A DNA stretch of 64,000 nucleotides from Spirochaetales bacterium (GCA_018433865.1 JAHDQJ010000002.1:383592-447591); one strand, 5' to 3'; shown: positions 1,813 through 26,661, numbered from the stretch's first letter. Numbers and translations are program-made. The notes: a model not told the origin generated them from the sequence alone.

Positions 1813-2970
1813 ATGCACTTCTCGCAACCGACCGCGGCGCGGCAGATCAACAGGCTCAGGACGCTCAACCTCATCGCCATGCACGAGGATCTTTCCCGTG
1901 CCGACGTGGCGAGGACGCTGGGGTTGAACAAGGTCAGCACCAGTGAGATCGTCGACCTGCTCCTTGCCGAAGGGATGATCATGGAGACGGGCACACGTGC
2001 CACCGCTGCGGGAAGACGCCCGGTATCGCTCGAGCTCAACAAGGATGCCAAGATGGTGCTGGTCCTCGACATCGGGACGAGAAACACCTCGGTGGCCCTG
2101 ATCAATCTCGCAGGGGAGATGCTCCGGTTCGAGCGCTTTCCGACGGCAAGGAAACCCTCACCTGAGCAGATGGCTGCCACGATCATCCTCCAGACACAAA
2201 AGTTCCTCTCCAGGATGAAGGATCCCGCACTCGTCAGCGGGATGGCCATATCGATCAGCGGGGAGGTGGAACCAGCCACCGGGACGATCCTCCGACAGGG
2301 CGATTGGGAATGGGAATCTGTACCCTTGGCCTTCGCCCTCTCCAAGCACCTGAAGTTTCCCTTGATCGTCGAGAACAATGTGAAGTCCATGATCCTCGGG
2401 GAACGATGGTTCGCGGATATCAACGCAGAGACCACCTATTTCTATGTGAATTGGGGTGAGCATATCGGAGCCGCCTATCTCGCAGAGGGGAAGATCCTCA
2501 GCCATGACTGTCAGTTCGGCCACATTCCCGTCGCGAGGTCGGGAACCTGCCGCTGTGGAGCGATCGGGTGCCTGGAGACGTTGGCTGCAGGGTGGGCCTT
2601 GGTGGAGAATTTTCCGCAGATCACCTCGGTGAAGCAGCTGTGCACACTCGCCGAGAACGACAGTTCTGCCGATTCCGACCTCTTGCATGCAGCCGAATCG
2701 ATGGGATTGGCCTTGGTCTCCGCCTCTGCGATCCTCATGCCGCAGCGGATCATCATCGGCGGGGGGATAGCCGCCCTGCCCGACCGCTATTTCACCGCGC
2801 TGCGTGAAACTTTCCAAAGGGCCGCTCCTCCCGTGATCCGCGAACGCACGACCATCCAGCGTACCAGTCTGGGTGAAAGGGCGGGCATCCTGGGGACCGC
2901 TGCGATGGCTCTGGATGAATTTGTCTTCAAGAGAACGTTGCTGGACCAGCTGAAACATCAGAGGGTATAA
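1813..2970 (+). CDS. ROK family transcriptional regulator (NagC/XylR-like)
   Basis: N-terminal wHTH (NRLRTLNLIAMHEDLSRADVARTLGLNKVSTSEIVDLL) plus a sugar-kinase-like fold with the CRCGAIGCLE zinc motif. Start could be TTG 1807 or ATG 1813. Confidence 0.75.
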   Translation: MHFSQPTAARQINRLRTLNLIAMHEDLSRADVARTLGLNKVSTSEIVDLLLAEGMIMETGTRATAAGRRPVSLELNKDAKMVLVLDIGTRNTSVALINLAGEMLRFERFPTARKPSPEQMAATIILQTQKFLSRMKDPALVSGMAISISGEVEPATGTILRQGDWEWESVPLAFALSKHLKFPLIVENNVKSMILGERWFADINAETTYFYVNWGEHIGAAYLAEGKILSHDCQFGHIPVARSGTCRCGAIGCLETLAAGWALVENFPQITSVKQLCTLAENDSSADSDLLHAAESMGLALVSASAILMPQRIIIGGGIAALPDRYFTALRETFQRAAPPVIRERTTIQRTSLGERAGILGTAAMALDEFVFKRTLLDQLKHQRV

Positions 2971-3000
2971 AAAAACCGCTTCCCTTTTGGGGGAAAGCGG
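2969..3000. terminator. Hairpin with an A-run on the plus strand (T-run on the minus strand)
   Basis: ccgcttccc/gggggaaagcgg stem (one bulge) directly after the ROK stop. The T7 tail is on the minus-strand side, so it may also stop the secreted-protein transcript. Confidence 0.4.
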
Positions 3001-3146
3001 CACCTCCTTCAGAGCATAAGGAGCGACCTTATCTCCATGCATCCCTGAGCAGCTTCCGCACTGCCCGAGAGCAACCACAGATTTGATTATTGCATGGTTT
3101 CATTCAGTTGAAAAGCTTTTTTTTTCGAAGTTTTCGCGTGCTTTTT

Positions 3147-3683
3147 TTATTCAACAGAAAGCGATACAAGAATATCGGATCGATAGGTATCGGTCGCCGC
3201 GGCGACCAAGGCGGCTGAGTATCCGGCATCGGTAAGACGCGCTGCAAATATCTTCGTGACCGCTGAAAGCGCACTTCCCGCACCGACTGTGATGTTCACG
3301 AAAGAGTCGCTCACACGGATGACCGGATCGTCATCGCCCTCCTCCGGCCGCTCGAGCAGCTCGAAGGCAATTTCGTCATCTATCGTATCGAGGGTACTGC
3401 GAAGCGGTTCGAACACATAGGATACCTTGAACGTGGTGGCCTCGATCGGAGGATTGTCCACCCGGAGTGTCCATGTCCCGATATCGACACCGGGATTGCC
3501 CGGCTGCATCGTCTCGGAAAGCAGGTCCACCGAACCGTCATTCAAAGGAGCGACGGAGAAATAGGGCCGGCTTTCGATGAACCCGGTGAATACGATGGTA
3601 CCGGTCTCCGCCGGTGGATCCGCAACAACCAGGGAGGAGAAGATGAACATGGTGAGGAATGTGAGAAGCAAGCTCTTTTTCAT
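3147..3683 (-). CDS. Secreted hypothetical protein, paralog A of the five-member family
   Basis: Start taken at MKKSLLL (GGAG 8 nt upstream). Signal peptide MKKSLLLTFLTMFIFSSLVVA|D. Shares blocks with 3760..4281 (GTWTLRVDN/GSWTLVTNN, SYVFEPLRS/EYVFGPLTS, C-terminal YRSDILVSLSVE). Confidence 0.7.
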   Translation of the reverse strand: MKKSLLLTFLTMFIFSSLVVADPPAETGTIVFTGFIESRPYFSVAPLNDGSVDLLSETMQPGNPGVDIGTWTLRVDNPPIEATTFKVSYVFEPLRSTLDTIDDEIAFELLERPEEGDDDPVIRVSDSFVNITVGAGSALSAVTKIFAARLTDAGYSAALVAAATDTYRSDILVSLSVE

Positions 3684-3759: not shown

Positions 3760-4281
3760 TCAGGACCCGGAAGTAAGATTGATAGTGATGGTCGAAGTGA
3801 AGTCGCTTGCAGGGTCGGCAGTAGCCACAGCAGTCGTAGCGTCTGCGGTAAGCTTGACACGCACATCACGAGTCAAACTGGTATTGCCAGAGGCTGGATC
3901 ATACGTGGTTTCTCCTCCTGTAGAAAGAAAAGTGGGAGTGGTACCATTCATCTCCACAACCTGATAGGCAAGAGACTGACTGGTGGTCGCACTCGTGAGT
4001 GGCCCAAATACATATTCAAGGGTATAGGACTCGGTACCCACGTGATTGTTCGTCACGAGTGTCCAGGAACCGACCTTCACACCATTTCCGCCGCTATGTA
4101 CGTTCACATCGTCCTTCAAGTTGATGTTAACAGCGGGTGTTACTTCGGTAACAGTGAATACATGGGAAAGCTCCGGTGCCAAGATATATCCGTTCACGGT
4201 CAAGGTGCCGGTATCCAGGGCAAACAGGGATGCGCTGGCAATTATGGAAATAGCAACCAAAACAATAAGTACTTTCTTCAT
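3760..4281 (-). CDS. Secreted hypothetical protein, paralog B
   Basis: Signal peptide MKKVLIVLVAISIIASASLFA|L. GAGAGG SD upstream. Thr/Ser/Val-rich beta-type composition. C-terminus DFTSTITINLTSGS. Confidence 0.75.
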   Translation of the reverse strand: MKKVLIVLVAISIIASASLFALDTGTLTVNGYILAPELSHVFTVTEVTPAVNINLKDDVNVHSGGNGVKVGSWTLVTNNHVGTESYTLEYVFGPLTSATTSQSLAYQVVEMNGTTPTFLSTGGETTYDPASGNTSLTRDVRVKLTADATTAVATADPASDFTSTITINLTSGS

Positions 4282-4314: not shown

Positions 4315-4343
4315 AATCTAGTACCAGTTAGCACTTATGTCAA
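4315..4343 (-). promoter_or_regulatory. Sigma70-type promoter of paralog B
   Basis: Minus strand reads ctaTTGACAtaagt, then a 17-nt spacer, then TAGATT. This predicts a leader of about 27 nt carrying the SD. Confidence 0.6.
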
Positions 4344-4598
4344 TAGATGATGTATTATTTTCATGCATTTTTTCAGATTTTCAAATATTTTATTTCTTTT
4401 CTTTATATAACATACATTTATATATTTCCAAACACTCTCAATCATGTGACATCTGAATAGAATTGGGGAGTTCATACTCCCACCATACTGATATATCGAG
4501 CTGGTATGATTGCTGCATCACGTCTCCTCATATGACAAAAGCTACAGGAGAGCCCTGCATAAGTGCATGAGAAGCGTGGTACGACTGGCGAGAGGATG

Positions 4599-5141
4599 TC
4601 AGAGGGCTTCGAGAATCAGCTGGACGGTCGTCTGATAGGCGTCAAAGGGAGGATAGGTATTGGCATCGATCCGCTGGAGGTAAACCGGTCCGTTGTTCTG
4701 CTCGGGCTTGTAGGTTCCGCCATTGCGCACCAAAGTCGCGAACACATCGCCATCATAGACCCAACCGTTGCCGTTATTGATACGGTAGGGAATCCTGACC
4801 GGCTGATCATTCACCGTCGCATTGAAGGTTCCCACGATTTCGCCACCATCGACAGTCGCATAGGCTGCAGGATGTTGGAGCCGGAGGACCAAAGCGGAAG
4901 AACTGTTTGATGAGACAGACCACTGCCCAACTTCAATACCAATCCCTCCTGCAGAAAGAAGGATATCTCCTTCATCAAGGCGAACTGCGTTGGGTAATAT
5001 ATCGAAGCTCCCTGAAAGGTCAAAGAGAGATTTCGATGCAACAACTCCACTGAGGGTCAAGGATGTAGAATCTATGGTATCGGCCACAAGTGATGACGAA
5101 AGTATGCAAAAAATCAGTATGATAGGCAGCATCTTTCTCAT
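4599..5141 (-). CDS. Secreted hypothetical protein, paralog C
   Basis: Start at MRKMLPII (GGAGGG 4-5 nt upstream). Signal peptide ends SSLVA|D. Blocks TSLTLSGVV, IEVGQWSVSSNS, and C-terminal AYQTTVQLILEAL. Confidence 0.7.
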   Translation of the reverse strand: MRKMLPIILIFCILSSSLVADTIDSTSLTLSGVVASKSLFDLSGSFDILPNAVRLDEGDILLSAGGIGIEVGQWSVSSNSSSALVLRLQHPAAYATVDGGEIVGTFNATVNDQPVRIPYRINNGNGWVYDGDVFATLVRNGGTYKPEQNNGPVYLQRIDANTYPPFDAYQTTVQLILEAL

Positions 5142-5173
5142 CCGTCCCTCCATCCTCTCAAGTTTATTGGATA

Positions 5174-5202
5174 AGTGTAATCATTCAACGGACATCTAGC
5201 AA
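5174..5202 (-). promoter_or_regulatory. Diverged promoter of paralog C
   Basis: Minus strand reads ctgTTGCTAgatgt, a 17-nt spacer, then TACACT. It matches 10 of 14 positions of the B/D/E promoter module. Confidence 0.35.
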
Positions 5203-5371
5203 CAGTCGAAATCTACACCTCCAAAACGCTATCTCTTGCATACCAAGATTAAATAATGAACTTTATTCAAAATTCTTTAATATAACAAATATTCTGACAT
5301 CATACTCTTAATGCAAACACTTTATCTTAAAAGCCATCCCCAGGCAGCATCTTTTCCAATGCCTGCTGGCC

Positions 5372-5415
5372 AAAAAAAATTGATGCCATGAGTAATATAA
5401 AACTCACGACATCAA
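5372..5415 (-). terminator. Rho-independent terminator after paralog D
   Basis: 14-bp stem (ttgatgccatgagt / actcacgacatcaa, two non-Watson-Crick positions) followed on the minus strand by T8 (plus-strand a5372-a5379). Confidence 0.6.
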
Positions 5416-5431
5416 TAATTTTGTCTTTTAT

Positions 5432-5965
5432 TTAATTTGTAGCTAAGTTAACAGTCCAAGTAGTTGAATAGGTCCCTGATTCCGCCAGATCCCAATCAGC
5501 TTTCGACATCGCAATGGTAAACTCTTTCGAGCTGAAACGCAGACCTGCCGTAGCCACAATACTATTAAGAGTTATCGGTACATCAGAAGATGAACTCAGA
5601 ACCGAAAAAGTAGAACCTCCCAACGGAGTAACAGTGTATCCAATTTTAGTAGTTACTCCCGATGCAATCATAGGATTAGCCAAGACAGTAACCGTATATG
5701 CACTATTCTTGTTTGTCATCAGATGAACTTCCAAAGATTTCGAAAGAGCAGTGTCAGTAAAAACAATCGGGGATCCGGATGTTCCAACAGGAGTAAGCTC
5801 AGCGAACTCCAACTTATTGGTTGGATCGGCAGATGGGGTAGTGATAACCACACCAAACTGGTCACCAACTGCAGTCTGTAAATATAAATTCGTAGATGCA
5901 TCATTCGCACCAAACGCCACACCGGCCACGAGAAGCACCAACAAGATTGCTAAAGCCTTTTTCAT
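5432..5965 (-). CDS. Secreted hypothetical protein, paralog D
   Basis: Start at MKKALAIL with a strong AGGAAGGAG SD. Signal peptide ends VAFG|A. C-terminus SGTYSTTWTVNLATN. Confidence 0.75.
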   Translation of the reverse strand: MKKALAILLVLLVAGVAFGANDASTNLYLQTAVGDQFGVVITTPSADPTNKLEFAELTPVGTSGSPIVFTDTALSKSLEVHLMTNKNSAYTVTVLANPMIASGVTTKIGYTVTPLGGSTFSVLSSSSDVPITLNSIVATAGLRFSSKEFTIAMSKADWDLAESGTYSTTWTVNLATN

Positions 5966-6035
5966 TTTATTCTCCTTCCTGACTATCATGTCTTTTTCGT
6001 TTTCTGTTTCAACCACCTTCCCGGTGGATGGTCAT

Positions 6036-6064
6036 ACACTACTATTACTCCAAACTTATGTCAA
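6036..6064 (-). promoter_or_regulatory. Sigma70-type promoter of paralog D
   Basis: Minus strand reads ctaTTGACAtaagt, a 17-nt spacer, then TAGTGT. The -35 module is identical to that of paralog B. Confidence 0.55.
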
Positions 6065-6281
6065 TAGATAAACAAAAAAATTTGTAGAAAATTTCAAAAA
6101 ATTTTTAAGAAATTTTTATTTTATTATTATATATTGAGTTACTCATTTATAATTCTTTTCATCTTGTGACATTTTATGTCTGTTCTGTCTGATTATTGTC
6201 CTAAGTTGGACGAATTATGCTTTATACATGCTACTTTCAGGGGTTGGAAACTGCCAGCTTATGTCAAACCTTTGTCAATCC

Positions 6282-6315
6282 GGAGAAGAAGAGGACCCGG
6301 CTTGCACCGGGTCCT
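6282..6315 (-). terminator. Terminator after the flavodoxin-like gene
   Basis: Perfect 9-bp stem aggacccgg-cttgca-ccgggtcct, followed on the minus strand by a pyrimidine-rich CTTCTTCTCC. Confidence 0.5.
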
Positions 6316-6338
6316 GACATAGTACGAAACTTCTTACA

Positions 6339-6932
6339 TCACTCGGTCTTCACATAAGAAGCGAGCGTATCAACATAGGCTGCCAGGACATCCCCGAGCT
6401 CCTGGGAAGGCCTGATCGTACTGTCCTTGCCCGCGAGGTGGACGATTCCGCTCACCGGCTGGTTAGCCCGCGCGAGATTGCCGTGCATGCCGAGCGGGAT
6501 GTGGATCAGTCCCATGGTCTGTGCATAGTGGACCAACGAGTCGATGCAGAACGCACCTTCCGCGATACTGTTGTCGCAGCTGGTGAAGCACGCGAAGTAC
6601 CGTCCCTCGAGACTCCTGTTCATTGCCAGCTCATACGTAGAATCCATGAACGCCTTCATCTCCGCCGAGACGTTTCCGAACGTCGTGGGGCACCCGAGGA
6701 TCACCATTCCGCTCTTGAGCAGGGTCGACTCATTCGCCACCGGCAGAGCCTGTATCTCTTCATAGAAGTCATTGGCAGCATCCGACTTGTTCGCCCAGAT
6801 ATGCAAATCGGCATCTTCTACCCGATAGAGCCTGGCATCTACCCCCCGCTCAACAAGAAGCTCCTGCAGGAATGTCGCGATGATGTAACTGTTTCCGTTC
6901 ACGCTGTGGACTATGATGGAACACCGATCCAT
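6339..6932 (-). CDS. Flavodoxin-like fold / NAD(P)H-dependent FMN reductase family protein
   Basis: Start at MDRCSIIVHS (GGAGGG SD). Pattern IIVHSVNGNS...VILGCPTTFGNVSAEMKAFMD is typical of WrbA/flavodoxin-like proteins. Confidence 0.6.
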   Translation of the reverse strand: MDRCSIIVHSVNGNSYIIATFLQELLVERGVDARLYRVEDADLHIWANKSDAANDFYEEIQALPVANESTLLKSGMVILGCPTTFGNVSAEMKAFMDSTYELAMNRSLEGRYFACFTSCDNSIAEGAFCIDSLVHYAQTMGLIHIPLGMHGNLARANQPVSGIVHLAGKDSTIRPSQELGDVLAAYVDTLASYVKTE

Positions 6933-6990
6933 GGCACCCTCCTCTTGGCGACGAATCGCCTTCTTGTATCCAATATACAATCTGGAGTGC

Positions 6991-7776
6991 TCAACACCAA
7001 GCGTTAAATCGTCCTTCCCGCTCGGAGAGGAAAATCCGGGTGCCGTAGGCCTCGCTGAGTAGCTCTTCCGAGAGGACATCACGCTTCGGTCCGTCCGCGA
7101 TGATCCTCCCTTGCTTCAACACCACGACCCGCCCGATCTCACCGATGATCTCCGAAAGATCGTGCGTCACCAGGATGATCGTACGCCCCTCATGCGCGAA
7201 CCGCTCGAGCGATTCACGGTAGCTCTTCTTCGCGGGAAGGTCGAGATTCGAGACTGCTTCGTCCAGGAGCATCACCTGCGGGTCGTGAACCGTCGCCCTG
7301 GCAAGGAGGACTCGCCGAGCCTCACCGGAGGAGAGCGATCGCATCGGCTTCTCGGCGAGATGCAGCACCCCTTGCTGCAGAAGGCACTTGCCGGCAGCCT
7401 CTTCCATCGCCTCGGTGACCTGATGGTGGAAATCGAGGCCGATGCTGCTGAAATACCCGGAGAGGACGATATGGCGTGCAGGATAGCTGGTCGTACAGAG
7501 ATATTGCAACGCAGCGGAAACGATTCCCATCCGCTTGCGCAGCTCCAGGACCTGCCATCGGGAGCTGCCGAAGAGGATCCGGTGACTATCGGGGGACCAC
7601 AGGGGGTGGACCTCCTCGCTCATCACCTGGACCAGCGTCGACTTCCCCGCTCCGTTGGCACCGATGATCGCCACATGCTCTCCCGCGCGAATGTCCAGGC
7701 TGACCGCATCGAGGGTGACTCTTCCGGCTCGGCGGACGGTGATGTTCTGCAAGCTGATGATCGGTTGTCCACACAT
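6991..7776 (-). CDS. Stand-alone ABC transporter ATP-binding protein (no permease partner nearby)
   Basis: Walker A GANGAGKST, signature LSSGEARR, Walker B MLLDEA, H-loop VTHD. Confidence 0.8.
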   Translation of the reverse strand: MCGQPIISLQNITVRRAGRVTLDAVSLDIRAGEHVAIIGANGAGKSTLVQVMSEEVHPLWSPDSHRILFGSSRWQVLELRKRMGIVSAALQYLCTTSYPARHIVLSGYFSSIGLDFHHQVTEAMEEAAGKCLLQQGVLHLAEKPMRSLSSGEARRVLLARATVHDPQVMLLDEAVSNLDLPAKKSYRESLERFAHEGRTIILVTHDLSEIIGEIGRVVVLKQGRIIADGPKRDVLSEELLSEAYGTRIFLSEREGRFNAWC

Positions 7777-7780
7777 GAGA

Positions 7781-7818
7781 AAGCCTCCGTCAGTCCAGCA
7801 TACGGAAGGCGGAGGCTT
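7781..7818 (-). promoter_or_regulatory. Hairpin whose 3' arm contains the SD of the ABC ATPase gene
   Basis: aagcctccg / cggaggctt 9-bp stem. On the minus-strand RNA the GGAGG in the 3' arm sits 8 nt before ATG 7776. Confidence 0.4.
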
Positions 7819-7838
7819 CTTGCAAGCGCAGAGTGTAC

Positions 7839-8615
7839 TCAGGCGAGGGCGAACTTGCTCGTTTTCTCTGCGTGGGCGGAGATCTTCTTCTTCAGATCGG
7901 TGAGGTTCACCAGCACCAAGGCGACCGCGAGATCGGTCTGGCCATTTTGCAACGCCTCAGCAATGTACTGGTACTCACGGACCTTCTTCTCATACTCCTC
8001 GTAGCTCATCGCGGAGTAGGCCAGGCTCTCGTCGAGCAGGGGGGAGAGGTTCTCGTAGATCGCATCGAGTATGATGTTGTCATTGGAACGGACGAGGACC
8101 TTGTGGAACTCGCCTTCGCTGACGCGGAATTCTTCGATCGCTTTCGACTCACGTGCCTGGATACCCCGCAGCGCCTTCTCCATCCGATCGGAGGTGACAC
8201 GGAGGTCCTTGACGATCTCCTTCCTGCGAGGGTTGCGCGAGAAATCGCGGGCAGCGGAGACTTCGACGCTGGTACGGACCTGCACGAGGTCGAGCATCAG
8301 CTTGGTATCGCTGCTTCCGCCACGAAGGATCGAATCGGTGAGAGACTCGACGAACTGATCAAGATTGTTGCACTTCACACAGGCACGCCTGCCCTGGCTT
8401 ACCGTGAGCAGACCCTTGGCCTCAAGCTGCTTGAATGCCTCCCGGATCGACCGGGAACTCGCATCGAACTTCTGTGCAAGCTCCTGCTGCGAGGGCAACA
8501 GCTCCCCCGCACTCAATTGTTTTGAGAGGATCAGGTCTTCCAGATAATTTGCAATCCGTGCCGATTTCGTGCGGCCGGGCAGTTTGTGTTGGGGAATCCT
8601 TTCGATGGTGTCCAA
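7839..8615 (-). CDS. GntR family transcriptional regulator with FCD (FadR-type) C-terminal domain, copy 1
   Basis: wHTH block LPSQQELAQKFDASSRSIREAFKQLEAKGLLTVSQGRRACV. TTG start with AGGAGG upstream. Confidence 0.85.
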   Translation of the reverse strand: MDTIERIPQHKLPGRTKSARIANYLEDLILSKQLSAGELLPSQQELAQKFDASSRSIREAFKQLEAKGLLTVSQGRRACVKCNNLDQFVESLTDSILRGGSSDTKLMLDLVQVRTSVEVSAARDFSRNPRRKEIVKDLRVTSDRMEKALRGIQARESKAIEEFRVSEGEFHKVLVRSNDNIILDAIYENLSPLLDESLAYSAMSYEEYEKKVREYQYIAEALQNGQTDLAVALVLVNLTDLKKKISAHAEKTSKFALA

Positions 8616-8640
8616 CTTCCTGGACCTCCTGATTTTGATA

Positions 8641-8676
8641 ACTTATGACAGAATACATTTTGGTGTTGTCATAAGT
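8641..8676. promoter_or_regulatory. Perfect 10-bp inverted repeat (candidate GntR operator)
   Basis: ACTTATGACA-N16-TGTCATAAGT, located between the predicted promoter and the start codon of GntR copy 1. Confidence 0.5.
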
Positions 8677-8685
8677 AAAAACGAT

Positions 8686-8714
8686 ATCTTACTAAAATAG
8701 TGTACTACATTCAA
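8686..8714 (-). promoter_or_regulatory. Promoter of GntR copy 1
   Basis: Minus strand reads TTGAAT, a 17-nt spacer, then TAAGAT. Confidence 0.5.
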
Positions 8715-8817
8715 GTTCTTTTGGCAAGTGCCACTAATAACGAATTATCTGATGACATGAGTATGGAATAAGTATGACATCACTTCATACAAATAAGACA
8801 ATCCCCATACAATACGA

Positions 8818-8847
8818 ATGACGCTTGGAATTGCTTCCAAGCGTCAT
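8818..8847 (-). terminator. Terminator after GntR copy 2
   Basis: Perfect 12-bp stem atgacgcttgga-attgct-tccaagcgtcat, 25 nt downstream of the stop at 8872, followed by a T-rich TCGTATTGTAT. Confidence 0.6.
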
Positions 8848-8871
8848 CACGGACCCGTTTGCGGGAGAGAC

Positions 8872-9603
8872 TCAGACTACCGTCGCCTCGAGCTTGCCGC
8901 GTATGGCGGTCAGGTGCACGAGAGCGAGTGCTACCGCAAGGTCTGTCTGGCCTTGCTCGAGCGCCTCGACCAGGTACCGGTGCTCACGGGTACTTTTCTC
9001 CAGCTCGCCGTACGTGTTGGATATCTGGTCCATGCTCGAGTAGAGCAGTGGGGAAAGATTCTCGTAGATGGCGGTGAGTATCACATTGTCGTTCGAATCG
9101 ATCAGGGTCTTGTGGAAGTTGAAGTCGTGGCCGTTCCACTGGCTCATCGCCTCCGGCTCCCCCGCTTGCAACCTCGGGAGCAGCAACTCCATCTTCGTGG
9201 TCAGATTGTCCAGCGACCTGACGAGCATGCTGCGCTGTTCGCTTCTCGAGAGCTCCCTTGTCGCCGAGACTTCCACCGTGGTCCGCACTTGCATCAGATC
9301 GAGCAGGAGCTTCTTGTCGGTGGTATGGTTGCTGATGAGGGTCGAAGAGAGGGAGGCGACGAACTGCTCGAGGTTGTTCGACTTGACCATCGCCCGCTTT
9401 CCTTGGCTTATCTCCACCAGTCCCTTCGCCTCGAGCTGCTTGAACGCCTCGCGGATCGAACGGGAACTCGCATTGAACTCTACGGCGAGATCCTGCTGCG
9501 AAGGCAGCGGCTCTCCCGCCTGATATGTTTTATTGAGGATCATCTCCTCTATCTGACGTGCAATCTGTGCCGATTTCGTCTCTGAGCTGAATGATGTGAT
9601 CAT
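8872..9603 (-). CDS. GntR family transcriptional regulator with FCD domain, copy 2 (tandem paralog)
   Basis: Start at MITSFSS (GGAGAA SD). LPSQQDLAVEFNASSRSIREAFKQLEAKGLVEISQGKRAMV is collinear with copy 1 over the full length. Confidence 0.85.
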   Translation of the reverse strand: MITSFSSETKSAQIARQIEEMILNKTYQAGEPLPSQQDLAVEFNASSRSIREAFKQLEAKGLVEISQGKRAMVKSNNLEQFVASLSSTLISNHTTDKKLLLDLMQVRTTVEVSATRELSRSEQRSMLVRSLDNLTTKMELLLPRLQAGEPEAMSQWNGHDFNFHKTLIDSNDNVILTAIYENLSPLLYSSMDQISNTYGELEKSTREHRYLVEALEQGQTDLAVALALVHLTAIRGKLEATVV

Positions 9604-9895
9604 ACTTGCATATTCTCCTATGACAAATACATAATGCCACATTTTTCTCCGAAAGGATACCTACTTTGTCTGCTTCCCTGTAAGAACCTCCAAAAACCTC
9701 TATCTTTTGACACAAGAACAGAAAATTTGGCGAAGAAGCTGTGAGATGCCCCATGAATTGCAAATTCAGCGTACTCTTTCATTACCTGACACGTCACCCA
9801 TACAATCTTTGTATATTTTTGTATCATAATAAACTATGTATAGCATAGCAGAAAATGAAAATCATTTTCCTGAATTTTATTGTGTTCGGTAACTA

Positions 9896-9924
9896 TTGAC
9901 ACAAGTAAACCACATGCGTATCAT
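9896..9924 (+). promoter_or_regulatory. Sigma70-type promoter of paralog E
   Basis: ctaTTGACAcaagt, a 17-nt spacer, then TATCAT. The -10 ends 7 nt before ATG 9931. Confidence 0.6.
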
Positions 9925-9930
9925 GAGGGC

Positions 9931-10476
9931 ATGAACAGGTTTATGCACGGAAGCAAAGCACAGACATCCGGTCGCCTCGCGGTCATTCTGATCATCATGA
10001 TCCTCCTTTTCGGAGTATCGGGACTCTACGCGGAGACGCTGCTTTCCACCGATTATCTCTATCTGAATACCAGTATACCCTCGAACAGCAGTTTCATCAT
10101 CAACGGGGCTGATCCTGACAACAATGTCGTGCTCACCTTGGGACAACCTTCTCCCCCATTGAGCTATGTCTTCACCTATACCGGGACGAACATCGTCAGC
10201 ATCACCATCACCAGCAGCAACGGAACGGGTTCGCAGATGCGTCTGAAACACTTGGAGGCTGATGCCTATATCCCATACCAGATGAAGTTCGACTATGATG
10301 GTCAGGGACTGTTGCCAGCCGAGACCGTGGTGAACGGAACCGCCCGAGACCTGGTGAAGTACAACGGCAATTACAACGAGCTTTCCGGAGGCATCCAGTT
10401 CATCACACCATCGGACGACAGTTATCTTGCCGGAGACTACAAGGACACGATCACCTTCTCGTTTGTAGGAATCTGA
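9931..10476 (+). CDS. Secreted hypothetical protein, paralog E
   Basis: Start moved to MNRF because the promoter lies inside the longer ORF. Signal peptide ends GLYA|E. C-terminus AGDYKDTITFSFVGI. Confidence 0.7.
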   Translation: MNRFMHGSKAQTSGRLAVILIIMILLFGVSGLYAETLLSTDYLYLNTSIPSNSSFIINGADPDNNVVLTLGQPSPPLSYVFTYTGTNIVSITITSSNGTGSQMRLKHLEADAYIPYQMKFDYDGQGLLPAETVVNGTARDLVKYNGNYNELSGGIQFITPSDDSYLAGDYKDTITFSFVGI

Positions 10477-12069: not shown

Positions 12070-12834
12070 TCACCTCATGCCATACCCGCAGTCCGCGGTC
12101 ATGATCTCGCCAGTCATGGCGCTGGAGGCCCCTGAGGCCAAGAAACAGACGATCGAGGCGATCTCCTCCGTCGTGACAAGGCGCCCGAGCGCGGCTCGCG
12201 AGCGATAACGGCTCACCAGGTCGGGGGTATGCTCATGCAAAGAGGGTGCATCGATGAGGCCGGGAGCCACGCCGTTCACCCTGATGCCGAACGGTGCGAG
12301 TTCGGATGCCAAGGACCGGGTATAGGAAACCAGCGCTCCCTTCGAGGCATCATAGTGGGCAGTGCCCCCGAATCCTGGCCGGAATGCATTGATGCTGCAG
12401 ATGTTCACGATCGTGCCGCGTACCTGCATCAGATGCACCAGTGCCAACCGGCACATCCGCCACACCCCCTTGATATTCGTATCCATCACCGCATCCCACG
12501 CCTCCTCGGTCAGGTCCTCCTGTGAAGAGACGCTGAAGATGCCTGCGTTGTTCACCAGGATATCTGGTTCTCCGAGTTGTGACACCGAGAGTTCGATGGC
12601 ATCATGTACCGACGCTTCGCTTCGTACGTCGGCGAGAACAGCTAGTGCCCTAACCCCATCGAGGCAGGCAAGGCGTCGAGCGAGCGATTCGGTGCGTGCC
12701 CGGGAATGTTCCGAGCCGTAGAAGAGCCCGACAGAGGCCCCTTGCATCGCCAGCGCACTCGCGATCGCTCCGCCCAGGTTTCCAGAGGCTCCGGTGACCA
12801 AGGCTACCTTGCCACGCAATCCGAAATCGATCAT
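12070..12834 (-). CDS. SDR family oxidoreductase (FabG-like)
   Basis: Start at MIDFGLRGKVALVTGASGNLGGAIA (TGxxxGxG). YDASK catalytic motif. ATGA overlap with the upstream gene. Confidence 0.85.
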   Translation of the reverse strand: MIDFGLRGKVALVTGASGNLGGAIASALAMQGASVGLFYGSEHSRARTESLARRLACLDGVRALAVLADVRSEASVHDAIELSVSQLGEPDILVNNAGIFSVSSQEDLTEEAWDAVMDTNIKGVWRMCRLALVHLMQVRGTIVNICSINAFRPGFGGTAHYDASKGALVSYTRSLASELAPFGIRVNGVAPGLIDAPSLHEHTPDLVSRYRSRAALGRLVTTEEIASIVCFLASGASSAMTGEIMTADCGYGMR

Positions 12835-13355
12835 CGGGAGGCTCCTTCCGCTTGAGACGCAAGAAACGGTTCGAGAAGCGCTGCCGCAGGGGAGTCTAAT
12901 CCACGCAGGAACAGGCGATCGGCCAAGATGAAATCCTGTGCATCGAACGCAGGACTCATCACCGTACTGCACAATGCATACCCATGCCGTATCGGTCGTG
13001 CCAGCCGTGATGCCTGCCACGAACCTCCCGGCACCACGGATACCGGCTGGGCACCCTCAGCGAACCCGAGGGTGTACTGACGGACGGATCGGTCGGCATC
13101 TGCCACCACCTGCGTGACCAAGTCCCCCGCAATCCACGTCCAGACCTCGTTCCCCGCCAGATAGTGCAAGGCGGAGAAACTTTGCTCGGTCATCAGGTAG
13201 TAGATGACGCTCGTCAAGGGCAAGCGTTCCTCGGTGAAATTCCCGAGGGATCCGGTTTCCACCATGGCCTCCTCGACGAAAATCCTCCTGAAATATCCTC
13301 CCTCTCCCTCGAGAGGCTCGAGGGAGAGCTGGCGGATCACTTCTGCACCCGTCAT
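12831..13355 (-). CDS. Cupin superfamily protein (DUF985-like)
   Basis: LEPLEGEGGYFRR...IYYLM...SALHYL...EVW pattern. ATGA overlap with the punA stop. Confidence 0.6.
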   Translation of the reverse strand: MTGAEVIRQLSLEPLEGEGGYFRRIFVEEAMVETGSLGNFTEERLPLTSVIYYLMTEQSFSALHYLAGNEVWTWIAGDLVTQVVADADRSVRQYTLGFAEGAQPVSVVPGGSWQASRLARPIRHGYALCSTVMSPAFDAQDFILADRLFLRGLDSPAAALLEPFLASQAEGASR

Positions 13356-14182
13356 GCCGGCCAAGCTGCGGTGATCGCCTTCACGAGCGCAGAGAAGGAG
13401 GATTTCACCCGCTCTCCCGTCTCCAGCACCTCATGATGGTTCAACGGCTGATCGAGTATCCCGGCGGCCATGTTGGTCAGGCAGGATATCCCGAGGACCT
13501 CCATTCCCGCGTGGCGGGCGGCGATGACCTCCGGTACGGTGGACATCCCCACCGCATCGGCTCCGCAAGCGCGTGCGAAGCGTACCTCCGCGGGAGTCTC
13601 GAACGAAGGTCCGGTGAAAAGCTGGTAGACCCCTTCCCTGAGTGTCATACCAAGCCGGGAAGCCTCCTTGCGTGCCATTGCACGGAGTCGCTCAGGATAC
13701 GCGGTGCTCATGTCGAAGAATCGCTCGCCCAACTCTTCGATGTTCGCACCTCGCATGGGGTTGTCTGCGATCAATTTGATATGGTCGCAGATCAGCATGA
13801 GATCGCCAGGTTGCCACGCGGTGTTCACACATCCGGCGGCGTTGGTGACCAGCAGGTTCGTGATGCCCATCACACGCATCATCTGCACGGGGAACACCAC
13901 GGTATCCATAGAGTAGCCTTCATAGTAATGGAAGCGCCCCTGCATGACCAGGACACGTTTGCCTGCCAAGGTTCCCGCGACCAGCCGTCCTGCATGTCCC
14001 GGTACGGTGGAGACGGGAAAGTGGGGTATCTGCCGATAGGGTACGGCGATCGCATCGGTCAGTTCGTTGGCAAGGTCCCCAAGCCCCGAACCGAGGATCA
14101 TGCCGATCGCGGGAACCTCCTTCCCTATCTTCGATTCCACATACGAGGCCGCCTCACGCAGCCGAGCCATCACACCATCCAT
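13352..14182 (-). CDS. punA: Purine nucleoside phosphorylase (PNP-I family)
   Basis: GSGLG...VPGHAGRLV...MQGRFHYYEG...GMSTVPE motifs. AGGAGG SD before MDGVMARL. Confidence 0.85.
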   Translation of the reverse strand: MDGVMARLREAASYVESKIGKEVPAIGMILGSGLGDLANELTDAIAVPYRQIPHFPVSTVPGHAGRLVAGTLAGKRVLVMQGRFHYYEGYSMDTVVFPVQMMRVMGITNLLVTNAAGCVNTAWQPGDLMLICDHIKLIADNPMRGANIEELGERFFDMSTAYPERLRAMARKEASRLGMTLREGVYQLFTGPSFETPAEVRFARACGADAVGMSTVPEVIAARHAGMEVLGISCLTNMAAGILDQPLNHHEVLETGERVKSSFSALVKAITAAWPA

Positions 14183-26632: not shown

Positions 26633-26661
26633 TTGACAAAGAGGGAGGCCATCAGTATAGT
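26633..26661 (+). promoter_or_regulatory. Promoter of the tRNA / SRP RNA cluster
   Basis: TTGACA, a 17-nt spacer, then TATAGT. The -10 ends 13 nt before the first tRNA. Confidence 0.65.

Follow-up and report, generated by a model that had tools for sequence, protein, structure and literature searches.

A conserved element overlapping the -35 region of secreted-protein promoters in a Spirochaetales bacterium as a candidate operator of a GntR regulator pair

A 64,000-nucleotide (nt) stretch of DNA from a Spirochaetales bacterium (GCA_018433865.1, JAHDQJ010000002.1:383592–447591; one strand), here called the window, contains a locus with five paralogous genes for secreted proteins, A to E, and two genes for regulators of the GntR family, GntR1 and GntR2. 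The promoters of paralogs B, D, and E share a 14-nt sequence that extends beyond both ends of the -35 hexamer, and the question is what reads the additional bases. A preliminary description of the DNA had suggested a repressor site overlapping the -35 element, which would make the paralogs one regulon. The core of that idea found strong support in comparative evidence, and the identity of the binding protein and the sign of its action are inferred. We consider it probable (about 0.62) that the boxes are operators of the adjacent FCD-type proteins GntR1 and GntR2, which would repress the paralog promoters and that of GntR1. The locus was compared with its syntenic counterparts in nine other Sphaerochaetaceae or Pleomorphochaeta genomes, in which the identity of GntR1 ranged from 83% to 57%; these loci are cited by L numbers.

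The 14-mer, CTATTGACAYAAGT, had three exact matches in the window, at 4333–4346 (minus strand), 6054–6067 (minus), and 9893–9906 (plus), and none in each of 100 dinucleotide-preserving shuffles. These were the three copies listed in the preliminary description, in which the position of the E copy was right and those of the B and D copies (4330–4343 and 6051–6064) were 3 nt too low. Each copy was followed, as had been stated, by a 17-nt spacer and a TA-initial -10 element, TAGATT, TAGTGT, or TATCAT. The shorter string TTGACAYAAG was found five times, always between 4.3 and 9.9 kilobases (kb) and with about 0.1 occurrences expected. The two copies beyond the 14-mers were located at 6258–6267 (minus) and 9707–9716 (plus); both had been reported before, the second as 9706–9715, and both had been called decayed, which did not hold because their sequence, orientation, and distance were conserved in other species. 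The related sequence TGTCATAAGT (TGWCAYAAGT) formed both arms of an inverted repeat in front of GntR1 (8641–8650 and 8667–8676), where the conserved CATAAGT flank had already been recognized.

When the window was scanned with a 17-nt weight matrix, 11 matches of at least 11 bits were obtained, all at 4340–9899, and the remaining ~57 kb contained none; the shuffle background at this threshold was ~2 per 64 kb. At a threshold of at least 13 bits over ten loci, 101 matches were found in 71 kb of locus DNA versus 1 in 158 kb of flanks, and the three loci left out of matrix training gave 30 matches inside and 0 outside. Within the locus and flank DNA scanned, the box was essentially confined to this locus. 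The boxes and the promoters around them were as follows.

4332–4348, minus strand: -35 box of B, ATCTATTGACATAAGTG; centre 4340, TTGACA at 4338–4343, -10 element TAGATT at 4315–4320.
4441–4457, minus strand: weak auxiliary box of B, TTCAGATGTCACATGAT; centre 4449, 109 base pairs (bp) from the -35 box, 9.3 bits.
4527–4543, minus strand: distal auxiliary box of B, AGCTTTTGTCATATGAG; centre 4535, 195 bp from the -35 box.
5174–5202, minus strand: promoter of C with a degenerate box, CTGTTGCTAGATGT; TTGCTA at 5197–5202, 17 nt, TACACT at 5174–5179.
6053–6069, minus strand: -35 box of D, ATCTATTGACATAAGTT; centre 6061, -35 hexamer at 6059–6064, -10 element TAGTGT at 6036–6041.
6161–6177, minus strand: middle auxiliary box of D, ATAAAATGTCACAAGAT; centre 6169; the distance to the -35 box is exactly 108 bp in five species.
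6191–6207, plus strand: weaker box of opposite orientation between the auxiliary boxes of D, GATTATTGTCCTAAGTT; centre 6199, with counterparts in L004 and L012.
6256–6272, minus strand: distal auxiliary box of D, AAGGTTTGACATAAGCT; centre 6264, 95 bp from the middle box, with a second TTGACA at 6273–6278, as previously described.
8640–8656, minus strand: box in the 5' untranslated region (5'UTR) of GntR1 by the ribosome-binding site, GTATTCTGTCATAAGTT; centre 8648, ~+45 from the predicted start.
8661–8677, plus strand: second box in the 5'UTR of GntR1, inverted, TGGTGTTGTCATAAGTA; centre 8669, ~+24.
8699–8727, minus strand: predicted promoter of GntR1; TTGCCA at 8722–8727, 17 nt, TACACT at 8699–8704, hexamers conserved in a six-species alignment.
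8747–8763, plus strand: box upstream of the GntR1 promoter, ATCTGATGACATGAGTA; centre 8755, ~-63, with 84–86 bp to the next box in six species.
9702–9718, plus strand: distal box of E in the intergenic region between GntR2 and E, ATCTTTTGACACAAGAA; centre 9710, of the most palindromic site class.
9891–9907, plus strand: -35 box of E, AACTATTGACACAAGTA; centre 9899, -35 hexamer at 9896–9901, -10 element TATCAT at 9919–9924.

The extended identity might be read by RNA polymerase itself, as an extended -35 element of a special sigma factor or as a strong generic -35 context, and all three exact copies were indeed true -35 elements with correct spacing. This explanation is very improbable. More than half of the conserved boxes were located off promoters, many with TGTCA, ATG, or CTG in place of TTGACA and with no -10 element, and two of them were located inside a 5'UTR. 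Furthermore, the other TTGACA promoters of the window, at 26633, 26910 (before a tRNA-like sequence), and 57716, lacked the CTA and YAAGT flanks, and the 158 kb of flanking DNA, which must hold promoters, contained a single box. The generic context, one of the outcomes that the preliminary description had named as refuting its proposal, was rejected within the DNA scanned.

The anatomy of the box was derived from 54 TGWCAYAAG sites compiled from seven species; in both site classes, the positions TG.CA.AAG were predetermined by the pattern used for the search. Outside the 9-mer, the sites preferred A-8, T-7, C-6, T-5, and T-3 on the left and W+7 and T+8 on the right. From these alignments, the conserved unit is TGWCAYAAG, with the best copies within an imperfect 17-bp palindrome (ATCTnTTG-W-CAYAAGwT), and it replaces the 14-mer that had been taken as the unit. 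The centre of the palindrome coincided with the fourth base of the -35 hexamer (~-32), and the asymmetry was mainly at -3 and +3. Some sites of distant loci were good palindromes, for example TTATTATGTCATAAGTA in L024.

The promoter-class sites of the seven species (n = 24) all read TTGACA, with W = A and T at -3, and all had the same sigma-70 layout (TTGACA, 17-nt spacer, TAnnnT) that was found at B, D, and E. The non-promoter sites (n = 30) had W = T in 17 cases and W = A in 13, and T, C, or A at -3. Since the bases required by sigma-70 varied freely in the non-promoter boxes, one sequence appears to be read by two overlapping readers. The best reading of the 14-mer is an overlap of the sigma-70 -35 hexamer with a putative operator, the core of which is TGWCAYAAG.

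The box was present at the -35 element of orthologous paralog promoters in nine of the nine other loci and was the best-conserved intergenic block, in up to ten loci. When the E-type promoters of seven species were compared, the mean pairwise identity was 0.97 in the box (-8 to +8), 0.32 upstream, 0.29 in the spacer, and 0.59 around the -10 element. The corresponding pairwise values for the D-type promoters were 0.95 in the box and 0.65 in the upstream spacer. The flanks were conserved between orthologous promoters but not between paralogous promoters of one genome. This pattern, together with the 17–26% amino-acid identity of the paralogs, indicates that the identity of the box was kept by selection and not by recent duplication or gene conversion, both of which were rejected.

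The same observations bear on the explanation that the 14-mer is a leftover of promoter duplication or gene conversion without function beyond the -35 element, and that the repeat before GntR1 is an RNA hairpin controlling translation. The paralogs are arranged in tandem, so their promoters were once copies, and the GntR1 repeat, which immediately precedes the ribosome-binding site within the 5'UTR, could form a stem of 10 bp. However, the DNA beside the box has diverged to ~30% identity along with the proteins, and the specificity of the flanks for the orthologous promoter class excludes gene conversion. The W base varied independently in the two arms of the repeat, with a mismatch in L008 and in L015/L016, and this speaks against RNA pairing having been selected at this position. 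The hairpin was not favoured, and the explanation as a whole is hardly credible. A recombination or inversion site was also rejected, with no recombinase gene present and the same gene order in at least eight species.

The distances of the non-promoter boxes recurred among species although the intervening sequence had diverged. The D boxes were spaced by 94–95 and 108 bp in the window and in L008, L016, L017, and L025, and the B boxes (4535, 4449, and 4340) by 86 and 109 bp in the window, L004, and L025. The distance from the distal box to the -35 box of E was 189 bp in the window and 185–189 bp in eight loci, and the distances of 84–86 and 21–22 bp between the GntR1 boxes recurred in seven species (22 in L004). 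On this comparative evidence, the auxiliary boxes are functional-looking and not relics. The distances were conserved to 1–2 bp, and those of 21, 95, and 189 bp corresponded to 2.0, 9.0, and 18.0 helical turns, respectively, whereas those of 86 and 108–109 bp were out of phase. Such fixed distances suggest cooperative binding or looping. The spacers between auxiliary and -35 boxes (6068–6160 and 4349–4440) had a very high AT content and included A runs and T runs; across species, the length of these spacers was kept to the base pair, whereas their sequence drifted.

At paralog C, the 10/14 version of the module given in the preliminary description was found again, consisting of TTGCTA with TACACT. 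The C orthologs in other species retained CTGTTGACATAAGT with TACACT. In the window, the box was degenerate (TTGCTAGATGT), whereas orthologs elsewhere kept TTGACATAAGT. Paralog C of this strain may have escaped the common control or may be weakly expressed.

The genes of the locus to which the following arguments refer were as follows.

1807–2970: NagC/Mlc-like ROK regulator, adjoining paralog A.
3147–3683, minus strand: paralog A, secreted protein of ~175 residues, as are the other four paralogs.
3760–4281, minus strand: paralog B.
4599–5141, minus strand: paralog C.
5432–5965, minus strand: paralog D.
7839–8615, minus strand: GntR1, winged-helix GntR domain with an FCD domain (FadR subfamily), TTG start.
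8872–9603, minus strand: GntR2, 55% identical to its paralog GntR1, with the same recognition helix.
9931–10476, plus strand: paralog E.

Both GntR1 and GntR2 scored above the gathering thresholds of PF00392 and PF07729, which is the domain content of the FadR subfamily, and far below the NCBIfam cut-offs for FadR, PdhR, NanR, LldR, and GlcC. The recognition helix, ASSRS[IV]REA[FY]KxLEAKGL, was common to GntR1, GntR2, and their orthologs down to 52% identity. The GntR pair was located inside the cluster in all loci, and in L023 and L024 it stayed together with the boxes, with different flanking genes in both and a rearranged gene order in L024. In the six aligned species, three boxes bracketed the GntR1 promoter. 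The GntR pair is the best candidate for the binding proteins because its genes are within the cluster, boxes are found on both sides of the GntR1 promoter, L023 and L024 have retained the pair together with the boxes, and the recognition helix is invariant over the species range of the box.

A conserved block, TGTGGCATTAT, was seen upstream of GntR2 at 9632–9642 (minus strand); it resembled an extended -10 element (TGn + CATTAT) and had no -35 element. The box nearest to GntR2 (centre 9710) would be near -85. GntR2 may not be autoregulated in the manner apparent for GntR1.

The boxes could instead be operators for another regulator, namely the ROK protein (1807–2970) or a factor encoded elsewhere. 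The tie between the GntR proteins and the box rests on position, the canonical GntR and FadR consensus sequences are not matched, and a ROK- or MarR-type gene adjoins the cluster in most loci. However, no box was found near the upstream region of the ROK gene itself, and the ROK gene was absent from the fetched stretches of L023 and L024, which keep both the boxes and the GntR pair. The three conserved boxes around the GntR1 promoter are a usual sign of autoregulation, and the invariance of the recognition helix over the species range of the box also speaks for the GntR proteins. Control by another regulator is accordingly unlikely, though an alternative of some weight.

In the proposed mechanism, a GntR regulator bound at -32 would take the place of sigma region 4 and shut the otherwise strong promoters of B (with A), D, and E; in other species, the C promoter would also be shut off. 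The auxiliary boxes at fixed distances (95 + 108 bp at D, 86 + 109 bp at B, and ~189 bp at E) would probably stabilize binding through protein–protein contacts across the AT-rich DNA. GntR1 would repress itself through the box at ~-63 and the two 5'UTR boxes 21 bp apart. Binding of a small ligand to the FCD domain would take the proteins off the DNA, and all of the secreted paralogs would be switched on together.

Occupancy of the box by a GntR protein could also activate transcription, or act in both directions as with FadR, by recruiting or stabilizing RNA polymerase at weak -10 elements. The -10 elements TAGTGT, TAGATT, and TACACT are poor, activation is known in the FadR family, for example by E. 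coli FadR at fabA, and the upstream boxes resemble activator arrays. On the other hand, the centre of the box is inside the -35 element (~-32), where a winged-helix dimer would compete with sigma region 4, while known activators overlapping the -35 element sit near -41.5. A perfect TTGACA at the optimal 17-nt spacing needs no help, and the boxes in the GntR1 5'UTR (~+24 and +45) can only hinder transcription. Because a dimer at ~-32 would exclude sigma region 4 and the 5'UTR boxes can only obstruct, repression is likelier than activation, and we regard the latter as quite improbable.

Several points weigh against the assignment of the boxes to GntR repressors. Seven of the ten loci scored with the weight matrix had also served to train it, and the confinement of the box was judged on the 71 kb of locus and 158 kb of flank DNA, so a wider distribution or further regulon members are possible. 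The palindromy was moderate only, and the left half of the non-promoter boxes was weakly conserved and specific to the site class. The boxes upstream of a given paralog shared one orientation, a constraint that is not required of a site for a symmetric dimer. The box missed the canonical GntR sequence NyGTNxACNy and the FadR-subfamily sequence TKGT-N2-3-ACMA; its core was TG-W-CA with TTAT/ATAA-like arms and contained no GT...AC pair. In addition, the distances of 86 and 108 bp corresponded to non-integral helical turns (8.2 and 10.3, respectively).

When the system was compared with E. coli FadR, several features were alike. Both combine a winged-helix GntR domain with an all-helical ligand-binding domain, and the operator is in both cases ~17 bp long, roughly palindromic, and overlapping with core promoter elements. 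In FadR, a small ligand relieves repression, as one would in the system proposed here. Unlike the FadR system, the box described here lacked the TKGT/ACMA (GT-N2-3-AC) core that defines most FadR-subfamily sites, two tandem paralogous regulators were present with 11 boxes in one 5.6-kb locus, and the targets were secreted, structural-looking proteins and not metabolic genes.

E. coli NanR was the best NCBIfam match of both GntR proteins, below the cut-off, and was also matched by sequence in the PDB. It is described as an FCD repressor acting on (GGTATA)3, a non-canonical directional repeat at a promoter, to which several dimers bind cooperatively (PMC8012715). The NanR hexamers are adjacent, whereas the boxes of the present locus were 9–17 bp long and 21 to ~190 bp apart, and the sequences were unrelated.

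The canonical GntR consensus is NyGTNxACNy, and the FadR subfamily has TKGT/ACMA boxes (PMC4494728). Non-canonical motifs of the GntR family include TTATMKATAA of BioR and TCTTATGTCTTATATAAGACATAAGA of SdhR (PMC4494728). The TTAT...ATAA arms of the BioR motif were similar to those of the box (cTTATG-W-CATAAg), and the string GACATAAGA / TCTTATGTC was common to the SdhR motif and the box. GntR-type winged helices can therefore read such sequences. The likeness to the SdhR and BioR proteins is at the family level; SdhR is a HutC-subfamily protein with a double palindrome of 26 bp, and the BioR sites are 10 bp long. Neither BioR nor SdhR sites are known to coincide with a -35 hexamer. The arrangement of an operator in the core promoter with auxiliary operators at constant distances of tens to hundreds of bp resembled those of LacI, GalR, and DeoR. 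In contrast to those systems, looping in the present locus is only suggested by the spacing, and several of the spacings are not whole helical turns.

The E gene begins with an ATG at 9931, 6 nt past its -10 element. An ATG 6–7 nt past the -10 element without a ribosome-binding site was also observed in the E orthologs of L004, L008, L012, L014, L016, L023, and L025, as well as in C-type genes of L004 (8544–8578) and L008 (8455–8489); E itself likewise had no ribosome-binding site. The B and D genes had ordinary leaders with a ribosome-binding site. The E orthologs and some C-type genes are probably translated from leaderless mRNAs, and such transcripts give independent support for the promoter assignments.

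Paralog A had no box of its own and begins 77 nt after B, the start of which is at 4281, and the two genes probably form an operon. A hairpin, ATGCATGGACATAAGGTcgctCCTTATG..., was observed at ~3015–3045 between the converging A and ROK genes, with a weak score in the box matrix. Counterparts were located at 10674 in L008, 12064 in L016, 7126 in L017, and 15762 in L025. This hairpin looks like a shared terminator that is box-like by chance. Another hairpin, TCCACCgggaaGGTGG, was noticed after the D promoter at ~6010–6032 (minus strand) in the 5'UTR of paralog D. In other species, hairpins whose stems differ in sequence occupy this position, and the D leader may thus contain a conserved 5' stem-loop. 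When RNAalifold was applied to a rough alignment of the D leaders, the hairpin identified by eye was not recovered. An RNA family search of the region gave as its sole match a sub-threshold S-adenosylhomocysteine (SAH) riboswitch within the ABC ATPase gene.

GntR1 heads an apparent operon with an orphan ABC ATPase (6991–7776) and a WrbA-like flavin mononucleotide (FMN) reductase (6339–6932), all on the minus strand, and the three genes appear to be co-transcribed. The ABC ATPase had no permease partner, the WrbA-like protein is an NAD(P)H:FMN reductase, and the trio was kept in all related loci. In L012 (GCA_002900445.1), the GntR1 and HSP90 genes were each split into two reading frames (2232–3011 and 12206–13837), as either real pseudogenes or assembly frameshifts. 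The D-type gene of L004 was broken by a run of N at ~8600.

Paralogs A to E each had a signal peptide, and a search with a family profile detected no further member in the window. None of the five matched a Pfam or NCBIfam family, and their homologs came almost only from Sphaerochaetaceae. The AlphaFold model of A (mean predicted local distance difference test score, pLDDT, 83.5) was a beta-sandwich. When this model was compared with chaperone-usher pilins (FimG, FimF, Csu, and PapA) by Foldseek, the matches were weak, with a best E value of 2e-4 and template modelling (TM) scores of ~0.33–0.46. No chaperone or usher gene was found in the locus, and membership of the paralogs in the chaperone-usher pilins was not supported. 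The most that can be said from the model is that the paralogs may be pilin-like beta-sandwich proteins. A literature search found no paper linking Sphaerochaeta with GntR, these proteins, or this motif.

A more elaborate possibility, which we consider distinctly unlikely, is that homo- and heterodimers of GntR1 and GntR2 on ~11 operators with fixed spacing integrate two signals and switch a pilin-like secreted family, which would form a surface fibre or layer without a chaperone-usher system in spirochaetes that lack flagella. If this were true, the operator core would have evolved to be the -35 element itself, and every strong promoter of the family would be born repressed. Two regulators with the same DNA-reading helices and different ligand domains would then switch the paralogs either all together or selectively.

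As a switch, the proposed system would be conventional and local and would change no general principle; it would add a non-canonical motif fused to the -35 hexamer to the GntR/FadR catalogue. One DNA element carries two readable constraints, in which the sigma factor would set T-3 and A0 and the regulator the rest. The proposed regulon becomes concrete, with 11 boxes, four paralog promoters, the GntR1 promoter, and two candidate repressors, in a Sphaerochaeta-like host from a little-studied family of free-living, non-motile spirochaetes. It offers a handle on an uncharacterized family of secreted beta-sandwich proteins, and the FCD-domain ligand, once found, would reveal when these are produced.

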